A stretch of 11,680 nt of DNA, taken from positions 1-11,680 of the IMG/VR virus record IMGVR_UViG_2740892236_000004; one strand, 5' to 3'. The notes below the pieces were generated by a model, which saw only the letters and a program-made list of their open reading frames with translations, was not told the DNA's origin and ran no database searches. Positions 1 through 11,315 of this stretch are shown here, one piece after another. The translations under genes were made by a program, and so were the position numbers. Source of the stretch: a virus (lineage: Duplodnaviria; Heunggongvirae; Uroviricota; Caudoviricetes). Each line of letters starts with the position of its first letter. Position 1 is the first letter of the stretch.

Positions 1-947
1 GCTGAACTGATTGATGCCATTCGTGATGGTGTTGAGTGGTACAACAACCGGCCGCACGATGAATTACCGGTGAAGCCGAACGGCAAGCATTACAGCCCGG
101 CGGAGTTCAGAAAAAAACGCCTGGCGGAAGAGGACACGGAAATTGAATGGCTGTCCGATGTTGAACTGCGGGATATGTTCCGGCCGATGGTGGAGCGCCC
201 TGTAAGACGCTGTGAAATACGCTGGCTGAATAATATTTACTACGCGCCCGAGCTGCGTGACGAGCATGGCCGTAAGGTACTTATCAGCTATGACATTCAT
301 GATGCCGAACGAATTACCGTGCGCCGCCCGGATGGCAGCGTGATTTGCGAGGCGGTATGGGACGGCAATAAACGCGAAGCCTTCCCTGTCNNNNNNNNNN
401 TCGTAAGGTGCTTATCAGCTATGACATTCATGATGCCGAACGAATTACCGTACGTCGCCCGGATGGCAGCGTGATTTGCGAGGCGGTATGGGACGGCAAT
501 AAACGCGAAGCCTTCCCGGTCAGCGCGGAATACCACAAACAGCAGCAGCGCCTTAAAGGCATGCGTAAACGCGCAGAGGAAAAAATCCGTGATGCCGAGG
601 ATGAGGTTGTCAACGTGCTGGAGCACAAGCCGCAGGAGCCCTGGCTGGAAAACATATACCGCCCTGTGGGTAATACGGTGACCGTTCAGCAACCGGTCGC
701 TGACGATGAACCTGATGAAGAATACGAGCGTAATTTCCAGCGGGGATTNNNNNNNNNNATTGTCAACGTGCTGGAGCACAAGCCACAGGAGCCGTGGCTG
801 GAAAATATATACCGCCCTGTGGGTAATACGGTGATCGTTCAGCAACCGGTCGCTGACGATGAACCTGATGAAGAATACGAGCGTAATTTCCAGCGGGGAT
901 TGCAACTGCTCGAAGCGAAATTAAAAGAAAGTGATCCGCTGGCCTGA
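1..947 (+). CDS. A: Mu-type DDE transposase (MuA-like), C-terminal portion. The 5' end lies outside the window. As written, the frame is broken by two N10 scaffold joins (391-400, 749-758) with duplicated flanks.
   Basis: Frame-1 ORF open from base 1 (AELIDAIRDGVEWYNNRPHDELPVKPNGKHYSPAEF...). After each N run the same peptide segment is repeated in a shifted frame. Ends ...LQLLEAKLKESDPLA with TGA at 945-947. It sits directly upstream of a MuB-type ATPase gene, the arrangement typical of transposable phages. No motif-level proof of the DDE core is possible because only the C-terminal part is present. Confidence 0.75.
391..400. other. Scaffold join (10 N). Flanks 271-390 and 402-521 are the same sequence with a few substitutions.
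   Basis: Run of exactly 10 n. Sequence after the gap (tcgtaaggtgcttatcagctatgacattcatgatgccgaacg...) repeats the sequence before it (ccgtaaggtacttatcagctatgacattcatgatgccgaacg...). Confidence 0.97.
749..758. other. Scaffold join (10 N). Flanks 607-748 and 760-901 are near-identical overlaps.
   Basis: Run of exactly 10 n. ttgtcaacgtgctggagcacaagcc...cagcggggatt occurs on both sides with a few mismatches (ccgcag/ccacag, ccctgg/ccgtgg, gaccgtt/gatcgtt). Confidence 0.97.
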
Positions 948-1029
948 AATAAAAAAATAACCCGAGGGGTGACTCAGGTTATTTGAGGTTTCAGTCTCGG
1001 AGAATGCTGTCTCAAGCGAGGTGAATAAT

Positions 1030-1242
1030 ATGACCGATATTAACGATGTAATCAAGACCATTGATGAACTTATTGATGGCGGCGTACTGACGCAGTATGC
1101 CATCGCCAGAGAGGCGGGAATTTCCGACGGCACATTATCGGCTTTCCGTAAGGGAAAATATAAAGGCGATAACGCTGCTGTGGCTGCTTCCCTGCGCTCC
1201 TGGTATGAGAACTGGAATAAACAAAGCGCACTGCCGGAACCG
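1030..1242 (+). other. Redundant copy of the first ~71 codons of gene B, truncated at the N10 join at 1243-1252. An allelic overlap, not an independent gene.
   Basis: Translation MTDINDVIKTIDELIDGGVLTQYAIAREAGISDGTLSAFRKGKYKGDNAAVAASLRSWYENWNKQSALPEP is identical to the N-terminus of the full B ORF at 1371. The DNA differs at a few synonymous sites. Confidence 0.9.
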
Positions 1243-1252
1243 NNNNNNNNNN
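1243..1252. other. Scaffold join (10 N). Flanks about 906-1242 and 1254-1583 overlap (end of A, A-B spacer, start of B) with substitutions and a 7-bp length difference in the spacer.
   Basis: Run of exactly 10 n. The A stop (TGA 945-947 vs 1293-1295) and the B start (ATG 1030 vs 1371) are both present twice. Confidence 0.97.
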
Positions 1253-1370
1253 GCTGCTTGAAGCGAAATTAAAAGAAAATGACCCTCTGGCCTGAAATAA
1301 AAAAATAACCCGAGCGGCGACTCAGGTTATTTGATTAAACAAAGGAACTACACAAACGCGAGGTAATAAT

Positions 1371-2303
1371 ATGACCGATATAAACGATGTAATCAAGACC
1401 ATTGATGAACTTATTGATGGCGGCGTGCTGACGCAGTATGCCATCGCCAGAGAGGCGGGAATTTCCGACGGCACATTATCGGCTTTCCGCAAGGGGAAAT
1501 ATAAAGGCGATAACGCCGCTGTGGCTGCTTCCCTGCGCTCCTGGTATGAGAACTGGAATAAACAAAGCGCACTGCCGGAACCGCCGCAGTTTGTGGAAAC
1601 TCAGACAGTCCAGGAGCTGCGCGCACTGTTTCAGGCGGTTCGCCTGATGGGCTGTATTAACGTTATTGTGGGCGTACCGGGTGTGGGTAAAACGGCCACT
1701 GCCCGTAATTACTGCCAGGAGCAACCAAACACCTGGATGATCACCCTGTCACCCGCGCACTCCAGCGTCACGGAGTGTCTGCTGGAGCTGGCCGATGCGC
1801 TGGGGATTGATTACACCCGCGCGAACAAAGGGGCATTATCCCGCGCCATCCGCCGTCGCCTGATGGGAACGCGTGGACTGGTGATTGTGGATGAGGCGGA
1901 TCATCTTGGTATTGACGGTCTGGAGCAACTCCGGGCAATTCAGGACGCCTCGGGGATCGGGATGGTGCTTATTGGTAACCCGCGCGGATTGTTTAAAGGT
2001 GGACGCCGCGCCTTTGATGATTTATCGCGCCTGTTCAGCCGTCTTGCCCGTACAAAACAACTTCGCAAGGCCAAAAAGGCGGATGTGCTGGCCATTGCCA
2101 TGGCGTGGGGGATCAGTGGTGAGGCCGAGCTGGCCGTCATGCAGGCTATCGCTGAAAAGCCGGGAGCGTTACGCGTTCTGACACATACGCTTAACCAGGC
2201 GTGGCTCACCGCCAGCGGTGAAGGCGCGGCGCTGACAGAAAAACATATTAATGCGGCCTTTAAAGAGGTTTATACCAACCCTGAATTACTCTCACAGGTG
2301 TGA
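1371..2303 (+). CDS. B: Mu B-type DNA transposition / target-DNA activator protein (AAA+ ATPase with N-terminal HTH)
   Basis: 310-aa ORF. ATG 1371 is preceded by GAGGT at a 6-nt spacing. Walker A motif GVPGVGKTA and Walker B-like hhhhDEAD (LVIVDEADHL). Size (Mu B is about 312 aa) and position directly after the transposase gene both fit. Confidence 0.9.
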   Translation: MTDINDVIKTIDELIDGGVLTQYAIAREAGISDGTLSAFRKGKYKGDNAAVAASLRSWYENWNKQSALPEPPQFVETQTVQELRALFQAVRLMGCINVIVGVPGVGKTATARNYCQEQPNTWMITLSPAHSSVTECLLELADALGIDYTRANKGALSRAIRRRLMGTRGLVIVDEADHLGIDGLEQLRAIQDASGIGMVLIGNPRGLFKGGRRAFDDLSRLFSRLARTKQLRKAKKADVLAIAMAWGISGEAELAVMQAIAEKPGALRVLTHTLNQAWLTASGEGAALTEKHINAAFKEVYTNPELLSQV

Positions 2304-2305
2304 TT

Positions 2306-2527
2306 ATGGCGGTATTTAATATTCCTGATATTTACGGACGCTTTTACCTGGTTAATTTCGATAACGTGAAGGTGATTTCACTGGCCGAAAATAAAGAATG
2401 TGGCGATTTACTTTTTGAATTTAATGACCGCACACGAATGGTGATATCTGCCGGACTTGATCGCGAAGGTGCGACAGAAGTTTACAGCGGAATATGCCGT
2501 TCTGTTGGTGCGAAACAAGTCAGCTAA
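2306..2527 (+). CDS. Small early protein (73 aa) at the position occupied by kil in phage Mu; function not established from sequence
   Basis: ATG 2306 follows AGGTG at a 5-nt spacing and lies 2 nt after the B stop (TGA 2301-2303); an in-frame GTG at 2300 is an alternative start. Translation MAVFNIPDIYGRFYLVNFDNVKVISLAENKECGDLLFEFNDRTRMVISAGLDREGATEVYSGICRSVGAKQVS. The kil assignment rests on position and size only. Confidence 0.55.
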   Translation: MAVFNIPDIYGRFYLVNFDNVKVISLAENKECGDLLFEFNDRTRMVISAGLDREGATEVYSGICRSVGAKQVS

Positions 2528-2539
2528 ATGAGGTGTTAT

Positions 2540-2794
2540 ATGAATATGCAATCCTGCGGTAACAAAATGAATTTATTCGACTCCCTGAACAGCGCGCGCC
2601 GTCTGACCGAACTTGCCGGTGCGGTACTGGAACGCAGTAAGCGCTATCCGCAACGTTTTGCACTGAAAACCACGCCGCCGGTAGGCAACGTGCAGGGAAC
2701 CGGTGAAATTGAAATCACCATACAGACCAACGGCCTGCGCCGCCGTGTGAAGGCCACCCGCATCAGCGGCTGCACGGTTTACTGGGAGGTGTGA
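2540..2794 (+). CDS. Hypothetical early protein (about 84 aa)
   Basis: ORF with GAGG 6 nt upstream of ATG 2540 (in-frame ATG 2528 is also possible). Sits in the co-directional early gene string. No recognisable motif. Confidence 0.5.
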   Translation: MNMQSCGNKMNLFDSLNSARRLTELAGAVLERSKRYPQRFALKTTPPVGNVQGTGEIEITIQTNGLRRRVKATRISGCTVYWEV

Positions 2795-2795
2795 G

Positions 2796-3077
2796 GTGAA
2801 AAAAAATCTCATTGCATGGGCGTGGTCGAGTGGTCTTATTGAGTTTGGTTACGTCCTGCCGGAAGGTGCATTGCCGATAGTTGCCGGAAAGCCTGCCACG
2901 GTACGGCATGTGATTGAGGTTATGGCGCGTCATGGACGTGATGAACAGGAGCAGTTACTGGTTCCGGGGATACCGGAAGCGGTGACGGAGGAAGAAGCCT
3001 TTAATGCCATGATTCGGTTCTGCCGTGAGGTTAGACGCCGGGTCAGTTATCCAAACAGAACGAGGACCAGAGGATGA
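2796..3077 (+). CDS. Hypothetical early protein (93 aa)
   Basis: GTG 2796 is preceded by GGAGG (2785-2789). It lies 1 nt after the upstream TGA (2792-2794) and its own TGA (3075-3077) overlaps the next ATG (3074), indicating translational coupling. Confidence 0.55.
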   Translation: MKKNLIAWAWSSGLIEFGYVLPEGALPIVAGKPATVRHVIEVMARHGRDEQEQLLVPGIPEAVTEEEAFNAMIRFCREVRRRVSYPNRTRTRG

Positions 3078-3346
3078 GTAAAGTCGTACGCATTATTTTC
3101 GAATACAAGGAAGATGTTATCTGCAAAAACTCTGATGGCAGCACGCACAGAGGGGTAAGTCTGGATATACGTTCAACCGGAATAAAGAAGAAAGATAATG
3201 GACCCGCCATGATTTTTGGGGTGGTTATGCTGGCAGAAAGCAGAAACTTCGCAGAGTTTGTGGCAATGAAAGCCAGTGCATTCATGAAAGACAGAGGCAT
3301 GGCTTCCGGGGTTATTAACGGTAATGAATTTAATCAACAGGGGTAA
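3074..3346 (+). CDS. Hypothetical small protein, paralog 1 of a tandem pair (N-terminus MSKVVRIIFEY...)
   Basis: ATG 3074 with GAGGA upstream. 90 aa. Lower-GC segment. N-terminus and internal blocks resemble the next ORF. Confidence 0.55.
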   Translation: MSKVVRIIFEYKEDVICKNSDGSTHRGVSLDIRSTGIKKKDNGPAMIFGVVMLAESRNFAEFVAMKASAFMKDRGMASGVINGNEFNQQG

Positions 3347-3350
3347 TTCC

Positions 3351-3644
3351 ATGAGCAAAGTACGCGTTATTTTTGAATTTAATCATGTTTCGCATGACGA
3401 AAAGTTGGCAGGCAATGACTGTGTTGAAGTGCATGAAAAGATTGGAGTGGATGTGAAAACAGAACGTGATACGGATAACAGGCCGACGTCACTCTGTGAC
3501 GTTTATGCAAGTATTCTCCAGTATCACAGTCCTGCAATTATTCAGTTTCTCTCAGCGGAATTTCAGGCATCTGCACAGTCTTTTGGAGCGGATGCCATCA
3601 TTAAACGCCACCGCGTGCATAAAGCATCAGGCACACTGCAATAA
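3351..3644 (+). CDS. Hypothetical small protein, paralog 2 of a tandem pair (N-terminus MSKVRVIFEF...)
   Basis: ATG 3351 with GGGG 7-8 nt upstream, 4 nt after the preceding TAA. The ORF track's longer 3324 start is in the same frame but overlaps the previous gene. Shared blocks with the upstream ORF: MSKV-R-IFE, D-NGP/D-NRP, AEF-A--AS-F. Confidence 0.55.
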   Translation: MSKVRVIFEFNHVSHDEKLAGNDCVEVHEKIGVDVKTERDTDNRPTSLCDVYASILQYHSPAIIQFLSAEFQASAQSFGADAIIKRHRVHKASGTLQ

Positions 3645-3655
3645 GGAAAAACAAA

Positions 3656-4186
3656 ATGGCTAAACGCGTTACAAAATTAAAGGCCGCAGCCGAGGCGGCA
3701 CCGCAGACCCGGGAAGAAGTCAGCCGTGATATCCGCACCCTGGGAGATATTCAGCGAGAGGCGCTGCGCCTGGAAACGGCGATGAATGACGAAGTGGCAG
3801 AAATCACCGCCCGTTATACGCCGCAGATTGAAAATCTTAAAAAGCAAATCAAAGTGCTTTTTAAAGGGATTCAGGACTGGTGCAAAACCAACCGTGATGA
3901 GCTGACGAACGGCGGCAAAACCAAAACAGCCAATCTGACCACCGGAACGGTGTCATGGCGGCTGGGAACGCCATCATGCAGCGTCAGCCGTGATGTGGAA
4001 GGTGTGATTGAAATGCTGCGCCGTATGGGGCTTGAGCGTTTCATCCGCACGAAAGAGGAAGTGAACAAGGAAGCCGTCCTGGCGGAGCCGGATGCTGTGA
4101 AAGGCATTGCCGGTATCAAGGTGAATAAAGGCGCTGAAAGTTTTTATGTCGAGCCTTTTGAACAGGACGCCGGACTGAATAAATAA
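3656..4186 (+). CDS. gam: Gam-like host-nuclease inhibitor (Mu Gam family, DNA-end-binding)
   Basis: 176 aa (Mu Gam is about 174 aa). Blocks such as LRLETAMNDEVAEITARY, ANRDELTNGGKTKTANLTTGTVSWR, GLERFIRTKEEVNKEAVLAEPDAVKGIAGI and FYVEPFEQ match my recollection of Mu Gam closely. AAGGA lies 8 nt upstream of ATG 3656. Confidence 0.88.
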   Translation: MAKRVTKLKAAAEAAPQTREEVSRDIRTLGDIQREALRLETAMNDEVAEITARYTPQIENLKKQIKVLFKGIQDWCKTNRDELTNGGKTKTANLTTGTVSWRLGTPSCSVSRDVEGVIEMLRRMGLERFIRTKEEVNKEAVLAEPDAVKGIAGIKVNKGAESFYVEPFEQDAGLNK

Positions 4187-4331
4187 CACCGCATTAATCA
4201 ATTAAATATCACTTCATTTTAATTATGGCGCTCGCGTCAGGGGACTGCTTGCGCCTGAAAACAGAAAATAAGGGTTAAGAAATATGAAATACGTTTATAT
4301 CGTCATTAATAATGTGGTGGGGAAATAAATC

Positions 4332-4865
4332 ATGATTGATGCAAAAGTGCTTGAAGGGGTTAAAAACTGGCTGTGTATTTATGGCCGCCTGACCTGCGGT
4401 GTACTGGCTGAAAAAATGAATATGCCGCCATCCTCCATGGTTTATTTTCTGCGTGATGCGGTTGATGCAGGCGTGCTGACGGAATGTAACGGTTTTTATG
4501 ATATTCCGCGCCCCCGCCCGGTGCAGCCGGTTCGTCGCAAATGCAGCCAGGAATCTGCGGCTGATGATGTTCAGTGGTGCGGCTTCAGAAAATCCCTGCC
4601 ATGGATTGAGGGGCATGATATTCCGTCGATGGCGTGGGAATTTGCTCAGGGCGTTCTGACCTGTGAAACCGTTTATGTGGTGGCTGAAGTTGATGAGCAG
4701 GCCATGAAAGAAGGCGTGCCCCAGTTTGTGATGGCGTATATCGACATACGCCTGGGCGTCATTATCTGCGGTTTAAGCGGCTGGAATATCACTGAACATG
4801 TTCTGCGCTACCTGATTGTTGACCGGACAGCAGCGCCTGCCGGGATATCTGCGGAGGTGGCGTAA
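4332..4865 (+). CDS. Hypothetical protein (177 aa), first gene of a six-gene coupled module. The N-terminal ~50 aa look like a winged-helix fold, but this is weak.
   Basis: ATG 4332 after a 145-bp AT-rich intergenic region. Stop TAA 4863-4865 overlaps the next ATG (4865). Confidence 0.55.
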   Translation: MIDAKVLEGVKNWLCIYGRLTCGVLAEKMNMPPSSMVYFLRDAVDAGVLTECNGFYDIPRPRPVQPVRRKCSQESAADDVQWCGFRKSLPWIEGHDIPSMAWEFAQGVLTCETVYVVAEVDEQAMKEGVPQFVMAYIDIRLGVIICGLSGWNITEHVLRYLIVDRTAAPAGISAEVA

Positions 4866-5380
4866 TGTTCTTTAAAACATCAAACCCTTCCGCGCTGGCT
4901 GCGTGGCAAAAATACCAGCAGGACTGCCAGAAAGTTAAGGATGAGGCAAAACGCCTTGAGGCCGTGCTGAATGTTGCGTGCCGGTCGGTATTTGTATCCG
5001 GTATCAGTGGATTTTGCTTTAAGGGACTGCGTTTTACGGAGGACAAATATCCTTTTCATCGCGACTTATGGCGAAAACCGACTGCGTCGAATGGCTGGAG
5101 CTGCACACCGCGCACATCACGTATCCCTAAAACCCTGCGTGTTGCCTCTGATGAACTGAACAGTCTGTGGCGTGAATATTCGCCCGTCACGTATGCCAGA
5201 ACCGATGCGCTGTTGTTCTGGCTGGGTATTGATTTCTCGGCAATCCTGTTTGGCCCTGTGAAGTGGTTCTGCGTTGACGATGTGATTTATCTTCAGTGCG
5301 AAGATGATTCCGCAAAACGGAAAATGACCGAAATTCTGTCTGATGAGTTTTATGCTGCCGAAAAGCGAGTCAGGGGGTGA
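4865..5380 (+). CDS. Hypothetical protein (171 aa)
   Basis: ATG 4865 overlaps the upstream stop (TAATG). No motif recognised. Confidence 0.55.
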   Translation: MFFKTSNPSALAAWQKYQQDCQKVKDEAKRLEAVLNVACRSVFVSGISGFCFKGLRFTEDKYPFHRDLWRKPTASNGWSCTPRTSRIPKTLRVASDELNSLWREYSPVTYARTDALLFWLGIDFSAILFGPVKWFCVDDVIYLQCEDDSAKRKMTEILSDEFYAAEKRVRG

Positions 5381-5383
5381 TGT

Positions 5384-5935
5384 ATGATGATTTTACAACA
5401 CATGGGGCGAAAAGGTCGTACACCCGCTCATGTCCGCGCGTGGACACCTGAAGAAGATGCGCTACTGATTGCGCTTTATTCATCCACCCCGGTTAAGGAT
5501 ATTGCTGCCAGAATAAAAAGAACTGTCTGGGCTGTATATAACCGGACTGGTGTATTGCGCAGTTCATACCCGGAGTTACTGAAATATAAACACCCAAGAT
5601 TTACACCTGATGAAGATAAGTTTATTCGAAACAATGCCAGAACAATGACCTGCCAGCAAATGGGAGAATATCTCGGACGTAATAAAGATTCTGTCAGATG
5701 TCGGGCAGGAATGATTGGTGCTGGATTAACAAAGTGCGGAGAGTTACGCCCCGGCACGCGCATATCTGATGATGATGTACGTCTTATACGTGCGCTGCGT
5801 GATTCCGATTACCCACGCCGTCTGTCATTCCGGGAAATTGGCGAAAAGTTTGGAATATCTGAACATTCTGCTCACGCAGTTTATTACCGTCGCCGGACTG
5901 CCGAGGACGCTGTATTACGGGAGTTAACGCCATGA
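5384..5935 (+). CDS. Putative DNA-binding protein with three tandem HTH-like repeats (Myb/SANT-like or sigma-70 region-4/LuxR-like)
   Basis: 183 aa, with GGGGG 6 nt upstream of ATG 5384. Three internally similar ~40-aa segments: WTPEEDALLIALYSSTPVKDIAARIKRTVWAVYNRTGVL / FTPDEDKFIRNNARTMTCQQMGEYLGRNKDSVRCRAGMIGAGL / ISDDDVRLIRALRDSDYPRRLSFREIGEKFGISEHSAHAVYYRR. Confidence 0.6.
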   Translation: MMILQHMGRKGRTPAHVRAWTPEEDALLIALYSSTPVKDIAARIKRTVWAVYNRTGVLRSSYPELLKYKHPRFTPDEDKFIRNNARTMTCQQMGEYLGRNKDSVRCRAGMIGAGLTKCGELRPGTRISDDDVRLIRALRDSDYPRRLSFREIGEKFGISEHSAHAVYYRRRTAEDAVLRELTP

Positions 5936-6261
5936 TAACGACCTTATTTGTTGAATCAGATGAACCTCTTGTGTGTGCCGCCGGAATGCCGCTCTGTGGC
6001 GGAACGCTGACCGGTGTTTATTTCGGGGATTTACGCGGTTATCCCTGGCATTCACTGAATGATGCTTTCCCACCTGATATGGAGGCTGTCGTGCTGATTG
6101 TTCAGTATGGTCACCGTCAGGAGCTGCGCATCGGCCATATGGGGTATGAAGGCTTTTTTGTTGATGAAGAAACCGGAGCCTGCCTTGAAGATGAAGACGG
6201 ACAGGTGACGCACTGGTGTCATATTTCGGCTTTACCGGAATTACGGGAGGTGAATGCGTGA
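5932..6261 (+). CDS. Hypothetical protein (109 aa)
   Basis: ATG 5932 overlaps the upstream TGA (ATGA). Its stop TGA 6259-6261 overlaps the next start (GTGA). Confidence 0.5.
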   Translation: MITTLFVESDEPLVCAAGMPLCGGTLTGVYFGDLRGYPWHSLNDAFPPDMEAVVLIVQYGHRQELRIGHMGYEGFFVDEETGACLEDEDGQVTHWCHISALPELREVNA

Positions 6262-6608
6262 GAAGTTATATTGATAATGAAAAGCTGGAGACAATAAGCG
6301 ACTGTCTTAGCTTGCTGGCAAAAATCAAAGAAACTATTGAAGAGATTAAATTTCAGCTTGAATACGCACCATGTGGCGATGATGCATGGCGTAATGCTGC
6401 CAGAAAAGCACTGGCTGTCTTTCAGAAACAACGCCGGGCTGTTGAATACCGCCTTGCTGTATTGCGCCAGGAGGAAAAGGAAAGAAATATAAGACGTCAT
6501 GAACGCGTTAATGATTTCCTTGTTCGTGAATTAAAAGAGCGCGTGCCGGAGTCGGTATTTTTTGAATGTGAGGCTATAGCCCGTAGCAAAGCACTGGAAA
6601 CAGATTAA
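6258..6608 (+). CDS. Hypothetical protein (about 116 aa), predicted largely helical and charged
   Basis: GTG 6258 with GGGAGG (6245-6250) 7 nt upstream, coupled to the upstream stop. The ORF track's ATG 6216 would overlap the previous gene by 46 nt and lacks an RBS. Confidence 0.5.
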   Translation: MRSYIDNEKLETISDCLSLLAKIKETIEEIKFQLEYAPCGDDAWRNAARKALAVFQKQRRAVEYRLAVLRQEEKERNIRRHERVNDFLVRELKERVPESVFFECEAIARSKALETD

Positions 6609-6623
6609 GCAGGCAGGTGAATA

Positions 6624-6932
6624 ATGAGTATTGAATTAAGATCGTCTTATGAATATCGCAAAATCCTTATCGCCGGAGGGATGAAACCGGAAGATGCTGA
6701 AAAATTCGTTTCTTTTATGGATAAAGAATGTGACAAGCGGGATATGCCAGAAATTATTATGGATGACATGATTCTGGATTCAGCCGTAGCGTTAAGTCCG
6801 TTATGGATTGTGCATACCCTTGCGGAAATAGCTAAAAGAAGTGACAAGCAGGCGGCTGTCGCCGCCCTGCGATTACTGGCTGAATTAAGTTGTTCAGTCA
6901 ATCCCAATACGTTCTTTGACGAACCTGGTTAA
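6624..6932 (+). CDS. Hypothetical protein (102 aa). Its 3' end overlaps the 3' end of the reverse-strand gene by about 39 nt.
   Basis: ATG 6624 with AGGTGA 4-5 nt upstream. AT-rich. Stop TAA 6930-6932. Confidence 0.55.
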   Translation: MSIELRSSYEYRKILIAGGMKPEDAEKFVSFMDKECDKRDMPEIIMDDMILDSAVALSPLWIVHTLAEIAKRSDKQAAVAALRLLAELSCSVNPNTFFDEPG

Positions 6933-7611
6933 CATTGATTTGGTAACTTCTTTAATTAGATCAAATGGTGCGTCTGTAAACTCCTTTTTGATTCTTTCAA
7001 GGATTGGTTTTTTTCTCAGGGCGTTAGCTAAATCANNNNNNNNNNTAGTCAATCCCAATACGTTCTTTGACGAACCTGGTTAACATTGATTTGGTAACTT
7101 CTTTGATTAGATCAAATGGCGCGTCTGTAAACTCCTTTTTGATTCTTTCAAGGATTGGTTTTTTTCTCAGGGCGTTAGCTAAATCATGCCCCTGCTGGGT
7201 AAGCATAATGGGCGTGTTTCTGAAACCAACGCCCAGAGAATGGAAAAAGAAACCAATATATTTGGGTGTTTCTGACTGCATATCACCATTAACAATTGAG
7301 CCATTATCAGCGAGAAGCATAAGATGAAAAACTTTTTTATCCTNNNNNNNNNNAGTAAGCATAATGGGCGTGTTTCTGAAACCAACGCCCAGAGAATGAA
7401 AAAAGAAACCAATATATTTTGGTGTTTCTGACCGCATATCACCATTAACAATTGAGCCATTATCAGCGAGAAGCATAAGATGAAAAACTTTTTTATCCTT
7501 TTCCTCTCCTTCTGCCTCAGCCATGCCCAGATCCTGTAGTGTAAGGAAAGGTGTTTCAGCATCCTGAAAAGTTGTGAGAATACTTAATACTTCATCGTAA
7601 TCTATTTTCAT
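6894..7611 (-). CDS. Hypothetical protein on the reverse strand (about 136 aa once the duplicated scaffold overlaps are collapsed). The only reverse-strand gene in the window; candidate accessory (moron) gene.
   Basis: Reverse-strand ATG (complement of 7609-7611) with AAAGG 7-8 nt upstream. Translation MKIDYDEVLSILTTFQDAETPFLTLQDLGMAEAEGEEKDKKVFHLMLLADNGSIVNGDMQSETPKYIGFFFHSLGVGFRNTPIMLTQQGHDLANALRKKPILERIKKEFTDAPFDLIKEVTKSMLTRFVKERIGID, stop TGA as complement of 6894-6896. Two N10 joins (7036-7045, 7344-7353) with duplicated flanks inflate the apparent length. Short hand counts put GC near 40% here versus about 56% in B. Confidence 0.6.
7036..7045. other. Scaffold join (10 N). Flanks 6896-7035 and 7047-7186 are near-identical overlaps.
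   Basis: Run of exactly 10 n. gtcaatcccaatacgttctttgacgaacctggttaacattgatttggtaacttctt... occurs on both sides with 2 substitutions seen. Confidence 0.97.
7344..7353. other. Scaffold join (10 N). Flanks 7199-7343 and 7355-7499 are near-identical overlaps.
   Basis: Run of exactly 10 n. gtaagcataatgggcgtgtttctgaaaccaacgcccagagaatg... occurs on both sides with a few substitutions. Confidence 0.97.
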
Positions 7612-9928: not shown

Positions 9929-10156
9929 ATGGATGATTCAGATTGTGCTCAGGCAGTCGTGGAGCGGGCAACAGAACGCGCCCTTTGTGACCGGCTGACA
10001 CGTAAGTGCCGGGTGGAGGAGACTCCGGGCAGGCGTGTATGCGCAGACTGCGGGGGTGACATTCCGGCCGCCCGTCTGGTTGCCGTGCCGGATGCCATCC
10101 GTTGTGTGAACTGCCAGAGCATCATGGAGGCCGGTCATGTGGGTCAGCATCGTTAA
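9929..10156 (+). CDS. TraR/DksA-family C4-type zinc-finger protein
   Basis: About 75 aa. AAGGAAAAAGG lies upstream of ATG 9929. Four-Cys motif CADCGGDIPAARLVAVPDAIRCVNCQ with CxxC-x17-CxxC spacing, typical of phage TraR-like proteins. Confidence 0.75.
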   Translation: MDDSDCAQAVVERATERALCDRLTRKCRVEETPGRRVCADCGGDIPAARLVAVPDAIRCVNCQSIMEAGHVGQHR

Positions 10157-10448
10157 AGATTATGTCGTGCCGATCCTGTCGGCAACAGCCACGGCCGGGG
10201 GGATCTTTATGGCGCTGATGCGCAAAACCTTTGTCCCCCGCGAGGCCTTTGAAAAACTCTCCGACCGGGTTGAGCGGGTGGAGAGCCGGATTTCCGGCCT
10301 GCCCACGCAGCAGGAGGTGAACAGACTCAATATCGAAATCACCACCCTGCGCGGTGAGCTTAAGGCCACCAATGCCACCCTGAAATCCGTCTCCCACCAG
10401 AACGAACTGCTGCTGGAGCAGGCTGTAAGGAAAAAACACAATGAGTGA
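10137..10448 (+). CDS. Small membrane protein (single N-terminal TMD plus coiled coil); candidate lysis-associated protein
   Basis: 103 aa with GGAGG 6 nt upstream of ATG 10137; overlaps the TraR-like gene's 3' end. Hydrophobic segment VVPILSATATAGGIFMALM, then a charged heptad-like region. From memory, Mu-like phages have a DUF2730-type protein at this position. Confidence 0.58.
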   Translation: MWVSIVKDYVVPILSATATAGGIFMALMRKTFVPREAFEKLSDRVERVESRISGLPTQQEVNRLNIEITTLRGELKATNATLKSVSHQNELLLEQAVRKKHNE

Positions 10449-10731
10449 TTTCATTACTGAAGATCAGCGTCTTGTCATTCTGCGGTCGCTGGCGGATTAC
10501 AACGGCGAACTGGGCGAATCCGTGCTTCAGGACTGCCTGGATGATTACGGCCACCGCGTGTCCCGCGACACCGTTCACACCCACATTGCCTGGCTTGCTG
10601 AGCAGGGACTGGTGCGTAAGCGCACGCTTGTTAACGGTTATTTCATCGCTGAACTGACCGGCCGGGGTCAGGATGTGGCGGAAGGCCGCGCCACCGTTCC
10701 GGGTGTGAAGAAACCACGCGCAAGGGGGTAA
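10441..10731 (+). CDS. Hypothetical protein (96 aa), possibly winged-helix-like, directly upstream of the small terminase gene
   Basis: ATG 10441 overlaps the upstream stop (ATGAGTGA). The stop TAA 10729-10731 lies 2 nt before the next ATG. The fold assignment is a guess from helix-turn-strand patterning. Confidence 0.55.
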   Translation: MSDFITEDQRLVILRSLADYNGELGESVLQDCLDDYGHRVSRDTVHTHIAWLAEQGLVRKRTLVNGYFIAELTGRGQDVAEGRATVPGVKKPRARG

Positions 10732-10733
10732 CG

Positions 10734-11315
10734 ATGGATAAGCCGACGCGTGGCCGTGTACGCAAGGTGGATTTGCTCCCCGACAGCATCCGTAAGCCGC
10801 TGCTGGAAATGCTGCGTGAAAAACGCCTGACGCAGGTCCAGATCCGCGAGGAAATCAACCGTCTGATCCGTGAGGCAGGCCTGCCGGAAGAGCAGCAGCT
10901 TTCACCGGCGGCCATCAGCCGGGAAGCCTCCCGTAATGAGCTGATTGCCCGTAATCTGCGTGATTTACGCGAGCAGACAAAAGCCATGATGGCCGAACTG
11001 GGGGATAAGCCGACCGGTGAAACCACGGCACTGATTCTGGAGATGTCCCGTGCCCTGATGTACCGCCGTCTGCGTGCCGCCACCGAATCCCTGAACAGCG
11101 ACAGCGATGTGGATATGCGCCTCATCAAGGACATCCTCCTGTCGGCACAGCGTGCAGAAAGTGCCGCCGAGCGCAGTATTAAGCGTGAAAAAGAAATCCG
11201 GGCCGCATTTGCTGAAGAGATGGCGAACGCCGTCACCGACGAGTTGCGCGGCGTGGATGGCATGAGCGAGCAGATAGAATTCCGTATCAGGCAGATGCTG
11301 CTTGGTAAGGCGTAG
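10734..11315 (+). CDS. Putative terminase small subunit / DNA-packaging DNA-binding protein (Mu gp27-like)
   Basis: 193 aa with AGGGGG 5 nt upstream of ATG 10734. The N-terminal block RGRVRKVDLLPDSIRKPLLEMLREKRLTQVQIREEINRLIREAGLP matches the conserved N-terminal HTH region I recall for Mu gp27-family proteins. Position is upstream of the presumed large terminase. Confidence 0.62.
   Translation: MDKPTRGRVRKVDLLPDSIRKPLLEMLREKRLTQVQIREEINRLIREAGLPEEQQLSPAAISREASRNELIARNLRDLREQTKAMMAELGDKPTGETTALILEMSRALMYRRLRAATESLNSDSDVDMRLIKDILLSAQRAESAAERSIKREKEIRAAFAEEMANAVTDELRGVDGMSEQIEFRIRQMLLGKA

Follow-up and report, generated by a model that had tools for sequence, protein, structure and literature searches.

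Duplicated segments at the ten-N joins of a Mu-like prophage scaffold are probably serialised haplotype variants

The window analysed here, that is, the whole stretch of 11,680 nt, is interrupted by five N runs of exactly ten N each, which divide it into six contigs, and at every one of these joins the same sequence stands on both sides of the run in slightly different versions. The geometry of the sequence and our comparisons indicate, with a probability that we put at roughly 0.96, that these repeats are an assembly artefact, in which a short-read assembler or scaffolder serialised the variants of two or more Mu-like prophages. A preliminary description of the window had already proposed that variant contigs of related Mu-like prophages were concatenated by the assembler. 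This reading is upheld by the copies that abut the gaps, by the single-copy references and by the overlapping tiles that the contigs form on them, and it is further backed by the restored A and B genes, by the polymorphic sites at which the copies differ, and by the presence of both haplotypes in complete genomes.

The joins lie at 391–400 (join 1), 749–758 (join 2), 1243–1252 (join 3), 7036–7045 (join 4) and 7344–7353 (join 5), and across them the coordinate on the reference prophages steps back by 121, 143, about 338, 141 and 146 nt, respectively. The first three are real and had been placed exactly in the preliminary description, while the total number of joins had been undercounted, with joins 4 and 5 absent from its list and outside the range that it reported. 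In local alignments, the left copy at 271–390 and the right copy at 402–521 of join 1 align over 120 nt with 4 mismatches, and those of join 2 (607–748 and 760–901) over 142 nt with 4 mismatches. The copies of join 3 (906–1242 and 1254–1583) align over 330 nt with 23 mismatches, and additionally differ by 7 nt in the length of the A–B spacer. For join 4 (6896–7035 and 7047–7186) the aligned length is 140 nt with 2 mismatches, and for join 5 (7199–7343 and 7355–7499) it is 145 nt with 3 mismatches. The overlaps at joins 1–5 come to 121, 143, 338, 141 and 146 nt at 93–99% identity, where the full lengths at joins 1–3 (121, 143 and 338 nt) follow from the first base 3′ of each N run, which is homologous to its counterpart but different from it.

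An independent repeat search of the window recovers the same five copy pairs, and it finds no other direct repeat of at least 40 nt in the window. These flanking repeats are far beyond chance expectation, and the alignments and the repeat search together confirm the earlier statement that the same sequence, with substitutions, is present on both sides of the N runs. At all five joins, the last base of the left copy adjoins the N run and the first base of the right copy stands directly after it. A continuous and readable junction between copy 1 and copy 2, as expected for a genuine tandem duplication, is absent, all the junctions being N10 placeholders.

We have compared positions 1–2400 of the window with Mu-like prophages, and the nucleotide identity is 95.5–98.1%; among the matches is a Mu-like phage that two Stx-converting phages carry as an insertion, e.g., Stx1_JNE122137. 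The long contigs are 98.4–99.2% identical to the reference prophages L002 and L003. Among 5426 complete E. coli genomes, 237 match this query, in 281 places altogether, and a carrier genome has a median of 1 and up to 4 matching places. Where at least 80% of these 2400 nt is covered, as it is in 233 complete E. coli genomes, the region spans 1763–1775 bp in every case (233/233), that is, it is present in a single copy and is 625–637 bp shorter, which agrees with the earlier expectation that the true locus should be shorter by several hundred bp. A duplication comparable to that of the window was sought in these 233 genomes, and none was seen. When placed on L002, contigs 1–3 occupy 10001–10389, 10270–10616 and 10475–10957, and contigs 4–6 occupy 10620–16401, 16262–16558 and 16414–20743 on L003. 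That is, they lie as overlapping tiles, with overlaps of 120–337 nt between neighbouring contigs on the two references. After collapse of the overlaps, the window has 10,741–10,748 nt, compared with 11,680 nt in the raw form.

The collapse also restores the genes. The product of the collapsed positions 1–947 matches Pfam PF09299 (Mu-transpos_C, E = 6.6e-18), which identifies it as a MuA-type transposase, and a MuB-type AAA ATPase gene sits directly downstream of A. The latter is intact (1371–2303, plus strand, 310 aa), with an AAA ATPase domain (PF13401 AAA_22, 5.4e-18) and a Mu B C-terminal domain (PF09077 Phage-MuB_C, 7.8e-25). The counterparts in the references are annotated as Mu transposase C-terminal domain-containing protein and AAA family ATPase, respectively. 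In the raw sequence, the frame of the transposase shifts at join 1 (391–400) and peptide segments recur, and the same 71 residues of the start of B are encoded at 1030–1242 and at 1371–1583. The preliminary description was therefore right to report a frame-broken transposase with repeated peptides, and to regard 1030–1242 as a spurious second start of B. If the overlaps are removed, in either way, a single MuA C-terminal frame ending in ...DPLA* and one MuB are obtained, and both agree fully or almost fully with the reference proteins.

The gene order of the window is the same as that of the early region of bacteriophage Mu, with transposase A and the target-DNA activator B, and of the E. coli Mu-like prophages of HH35, JE86-ST05 and 97-3250, and the window differs from these E. 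coli prophages only by the duplications at the scaffold joins and by the haplotype mosaic described below. In the annotated references the order is repressor-like genes, A, B, small early genes, Gam, gp16, Mor, lysozyme, TraR/DksA, DUF2730 and gp27. The window begins within gene A and stops before the late genes finish, so the prophage ends lie outside it; a target-site duplication is annotated in the reference record of the related Mu_JNE122137. A scan of the whole window against Rfam returned no family at the gathering score.

For the A–B region, four contigs were aligned with 19 reference prophages. All of the differences between the copies fall at sites that are also polymorphic among these 19 prophages. 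Of the 20 coding differences, 17 are synonymous and at third positions, and the other three are non-synonymous (V/I, T/I and S/N). Since the differences are at known polymorphic sites, phased and mostly synonymous, sequencing errors are rejected as their origin, and two or more real haplotypes should have been sampled; judged from these patterns, both versions look like real alleles shaped by selection. Copies of a single prophage made by replicative transposition would be identical, so the local divergence between the prophage versions, about 2–7%, should exclude them as well.

We denote as type I the alleles like those of the HH35 prophage (L002) and of the JE86-ST05 copy at 0.72 Mb, and as type II those like the JE86-ST05 copy at 1.44 Mb. 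Contig 1 carries type II alleles (L003/L016-like) at 69–87 and type I alleles (L002-like) at 165–387. Contig 2 is of type II at 401–534 and of type I at 606–682, with the switch of haplotype somewhere in the invariant stretch 535–605. Similarly, contig 3 is of type II at 759–835 and of type I from 905 onwards, and contig 4 begins as type II again. The same phased allele pattern is shown by joins 4 and 5. Hence the contigs are haplotype chimeras even away from the gaps, each starting on one haplotype and ending on the other. This chimeric nature had gone unremarked in the preliminary description.

These observations are best explained by the following course of events. The window is in all likelihood a scaffold built from the short reads of a sample with at least two versions of an E. 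coli-type Mu-like prophage, whose early region it covers. In a de Bruijn graph the versions run together along any stretch of k or more identical bases, and variants closer together than k give two-armed bubbles. Five bubbles with arms over about 100 nt would have stayed unmerged in the assembler, so that a contig would begin on the type II side of a bubble, pass through the shared stretch and finish on the type I side of the following one. The scaffolder would then have ordered the contigs by read pairs and, where the estimated gap was negative, have written 10 N as its minimum, with the result that both arms of every bubble appear in series. The true locus should then be free of duplications, and neither the MuA C-terminus nor MuB nor the DUF2513 gene should be broken.

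The contigs, all read on the plus strand, can be laid out along this putative path. Contig 1 (1–390) is part of the C-terminal portion of the MuA-type transposase gene in frame 1, and its tail (270–390) would be the type I arm of bubble 1. Contig 2 (401–748, 348 nt) would supply the type II arm of bubble 1 with its head (401–521) and the type I arm of bubble 2 with its tail (606–748). In contig 3 (759–1242, 484 nt) the head (759–901) corresponds to the type II arm of bubble 2, and the tail (905–1242) to the type I arm of bubble 3, which holds the end of A with its stop codon at 945–947, the type I A–B spacer, and 71 initial codons of B (1030–1242), after which join 3 truncates the gene. Contig 4 (1253–7035) opens with the presumptive type II arm of bubble 3 (1253–1590), where the end of A appears for the second time (stop codon 1293–1295), followed by the type II A–B spacer, 7 nt shorter, and then by the start of the intact B. 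Its tail (6895–7035) would be the reference-like arm of bubble 4. This tail overlies the region of a minus-strand DUF2513 gene. Contig 5 (7046–7343, 298 nt) would carry the alternative arm of bubble 4 in its head (7046–7186) and the reference-like arm of bubble 5 in its tail (7198–7343), and the head of contig 6 (7354–11680), at 7354–7499, would be the alternative arm of bubble 5.

The positions of the breakpoints are also informative. At all five joins the first base of the right contig is a variant base, namely at 401 (counterpart 270), 759 (606), 1253 (905), 7046 (6895) and 7354 (7198). Base 1 of the window is likewise at a polymorphic site. The left contigs stop exactly 66 nt past a variant base, again at all five joins (390 and 324, 748 and 682, 1242 and 1176, 7035 and 6969, 7343 and 7277). 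This variant base is the last one in the overlap at four of the five joins, the exception being join 1, where a further variant is found at 387, 3 nt from the contig end. With a start on a variant and an end 66 nt after one, the length of an overlap equals the variant span plus 67. Independently, changes of haplotype occur solely across invariant stretches of 69–77 nt, and neighbouring variants that are separated by no more than 62 bases remain in one arm, which together bound k to 63–69. The two lines of evidence agree, and the geometry of the sequence fixes k at 67.

Every one of the five surviving arms exceeds 100 nt, and at a presumed bubble in alignment columns 165–195, with an arm of 97 nt, there is no break; this bubble is presumed because type II alleles were never observed there in the window. 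A strict two-haplotype model with k = 67 was rejected at join 1, since it predicts a contig end 79 nt further on. We assume a third variant sequence, or another break in the graph, at this join. Genomes with 3–4 matching places exist, which would be a parallel to a third variant.

Where the two haplotypes came from can be considered on the basis of the A–B spacers. The type I spacer (925–1045) is found in 15 complete genomes, and the type II spacer (1273–1386) in 7 at no less than 99% identity. Both spacer types are carried at 100% identity by JE86-ST05 and JE86-ST02, whose prophages of the two types lie apart on the chromosome (in JE86-ST05, at 0.72 Mb and 1.44 Mb). As both types are co-resident in these two genomes, the sequence could realistically stem from one host that harbours several copies of the prophage, and we lean, with less certainty than for the artefact itself, to the view that a single genome, and not a mixture of two strains, contributed the two or three versions as separate prophages. 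The two JE86-ST05 copies (L020 and L003) explain positions 1–1590 of the window except for two sites. JE86-ST05 was rejected as the actual source, since the window departs from both copies at 102 positions beyond about 1400, and it serves as an analogue only. Exact searches of IMG/VR with the two spacers gave 8 and 7 contigs, with no contig or genome identifier common to both, and no exact copy of a 141-nt stretch of contig 2 across the haplotype switch was found in the viral, genome or metagenome collections.

The alternative source for the same artefact is a mixed population, that is, two E. coli strains with one prophage version each, as in a metagenome or a contaminated culture. The graph geometry would be identical for either source, most of the carrier genomes have a single copy (median of 1 place), and the type I and type II spacers are mostly found in different strains, all of which make this source a possible one, though we consider it somewhat disfavoured. 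What speaks against it is that the complete genomes of JE86-ST05 and JE86-ST02 hold both types, that the matching places outnumber the genomes by about 15%, and that the additional break seen at join 1 may betray a third variant, comparable with the genomes of 3–4 copies; none of these points is decisive.

As for the program, the assembler may have been Velvet, or one that stores nodes in the same way, although this is less certain. Velvet puts 10 N where the estimated gap is 10 or less, its node sequences omit the first k−1 bases, and by default it merges bubbles up to 100 nt only. Nodes without their first k−1 bases would explain why the 66-nt flank is one-sided. Full-text literature searches gave no support for any of these three properties, the rule that Velvet writes 10 N at non-positive gaps included. 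It is also conceivable that the contigs were ordered along an external reference, with N10 spacers and untrimmed overlaps, instead of by the paired-end scaffolding of the assembler. Such ordering would likewise give overlapping neighbours and very small contigs (348, 484 and 298 nt), but exported de Bruijn contigs keep the shared k−1 bases at both ends, while the flank here is one-sided and the first base of the right contig is the variant itself, a pattern that concatenated internal graph nodes should fit better. We thus regard reference-guided ordering as improbable.

A much less probable explanation is that the duplications are physically real, i.e., that nested tandem partial copies of the A–B and DUF2513 regions exist in one molecule. 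They would have arisen by unequal recombination between two or three diverged co-resident Mu-like prophages, with the N10 runs hiding unresolved junctions, an origin for which we see hardly any room either. Diverged prophage copies that are able to recombine do share single genomes. However, this explanation needs five independent duplications, every one with its junction exactly at an assembly gap, and it also demands a polymorphic base at the start of each right copy and another 66 nt before the end of each left copy. In addition, such a duplication is seen in 0 of the 233 complete genomes, and the transposase would be inactivated, yet the copies differ almost only synonymously. Least of all can the N runs be masks over continuous real bases, e.g., from vector or contaminant screening: masking with N does occur in some public collections, but it is refuted here by flanks that are non-contiguous in any reference, where the coordinate jumps back by 121–338 nt each time.

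The serialised-variant artefact resembles the false duplications of short-read de Bruijn assemblies in which haplotypes or repeat copies were left uncollapsed, both in the variant copies that flank a minimum-length gap and in the breakpoints set by variants and k, with a single copy in complete assemblies. There is no essential difference from such cases, and here the rule of k−1 = 66 and the zig-zag from type II to type I are unusually legible. In practice, gene callers run on this scaffold will wrongly present A as a pseudogene, with a frameshifted or truncated Mu transposase, and will give a spurious 5′ fragment of B, the DUF2513 gene will likewise be called broken or artificially lengthened, and about 930 nt of false sequence will be over-counted. 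Since even the gap-free stretches are chimeric for the two haplotypes, they are unsuitable for allele typing or recombination analysis. Joins of this type could be flagged automatically in a simple way, by a right contig that starts on a variant base and a left contig that ends k−1 bases after one. Overall, the finding is an ordinary assembly artefact and is relevant to annotation hygiene only. Its sole biological message is that the sample had two or more diverged Mu-like prophages, a situation already documented in complete E. coli genomes.

The preliminary description had reported three N10 joins in the region of the transposase gene A and the ATPase gene B (391-400, 749-758 and 1243-1252), each flanked by overlapping, slightly divergent sequence. 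We do observe this kind of flanks at these joins, but two further ones were missed. The join at 7036-7045 lies between the arms 6895-7035 and 7046-7186, and that at 7344-7353 between 7198-7343 and 7354-7499, and here too the arms are overlapping, slightly divergent copies. Together these two joins break up a minus-strand DUF2513 gene, leaving it in three overlapping pieces, produce an artificial 192-aa ORF on the same strand (7033-7611), and double the final 37 nt of the plus-strand ORF at 6624-6932.

Within the contigs, the sequence switches from one prophage haplotype (type II) to the other (type I) over invariant stretches of 69-77 nt, which are located at 88-164, 535-605, 836-904, 6819-6894 and 7121-7197. 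Since the haplotype changes inside contigs, even the gap-free sequence is a chimera of two prophage versions. For the switch in 535-605, the exact 141-nt stretch of contig 2 over it has no match in three public collections (viral, genome and metagenome).

Join 1 (391-400) shows an anomaly. Contig 1 ends 66 nt past the variant at 324, and a second variant, at 387, falls within the same arm (324-390). A two-haplotype graph with a word length of k = 67 predicts an end 79 nt beyond the observed one, and the observed end position suggests a third prophage variant in the sample. As for the start of the window, base 1 is itself a polymorphic site, with G in the window and in L016 (a reference prophage with type II-like alleles), and is unaligned in most other references. 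Because every contig after an N run likewise starts on a polymorphic site, the window perhaps opens at a contig start too, one that may lie within a longer scaffold.

In the complete genome of E. coli JE86-ST05 (NZ_AP022815.1), the A-B region has matches at three places, including one type I prophage (L020) and one type II prophage (L003), whose host insertion sites differ (the flgK/flgL region and citF). Several genes of both prophages carry frameshifted annotation; errors typical of the long reads behind this assembly, rather than biology, may account for it.

Directly 3' of the transposase stop codon lies a hairpin of 12-13 bp (955-984, with a second copy at 1303-1332), between an A-run and a T-rich tail. 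Its stem (AAATAACCCGAG ... CTCAGGTTATTT) is the same in both haplotypes, while the loop is GGGTGA in the first copy and CGGCGA in the second; a terminator-like score is obtained on the minus strand only. From the hairpin to the ribosome-binding site of B (985-1029 versus 1333-1370), the haplotypes are almost unrelated and differ in length by 7 nt; the flanking genes are 97-99% identical between them. The type I version of this segment is rare in complete E. coli genomes, with 15 carriers; 7 genomes have the exact type II version, and about 200 have a further form that is just 80-90% identical. The segment has the look of a cassette that can be exchanged, or of a recombination hot spot, within the A-B spacer.
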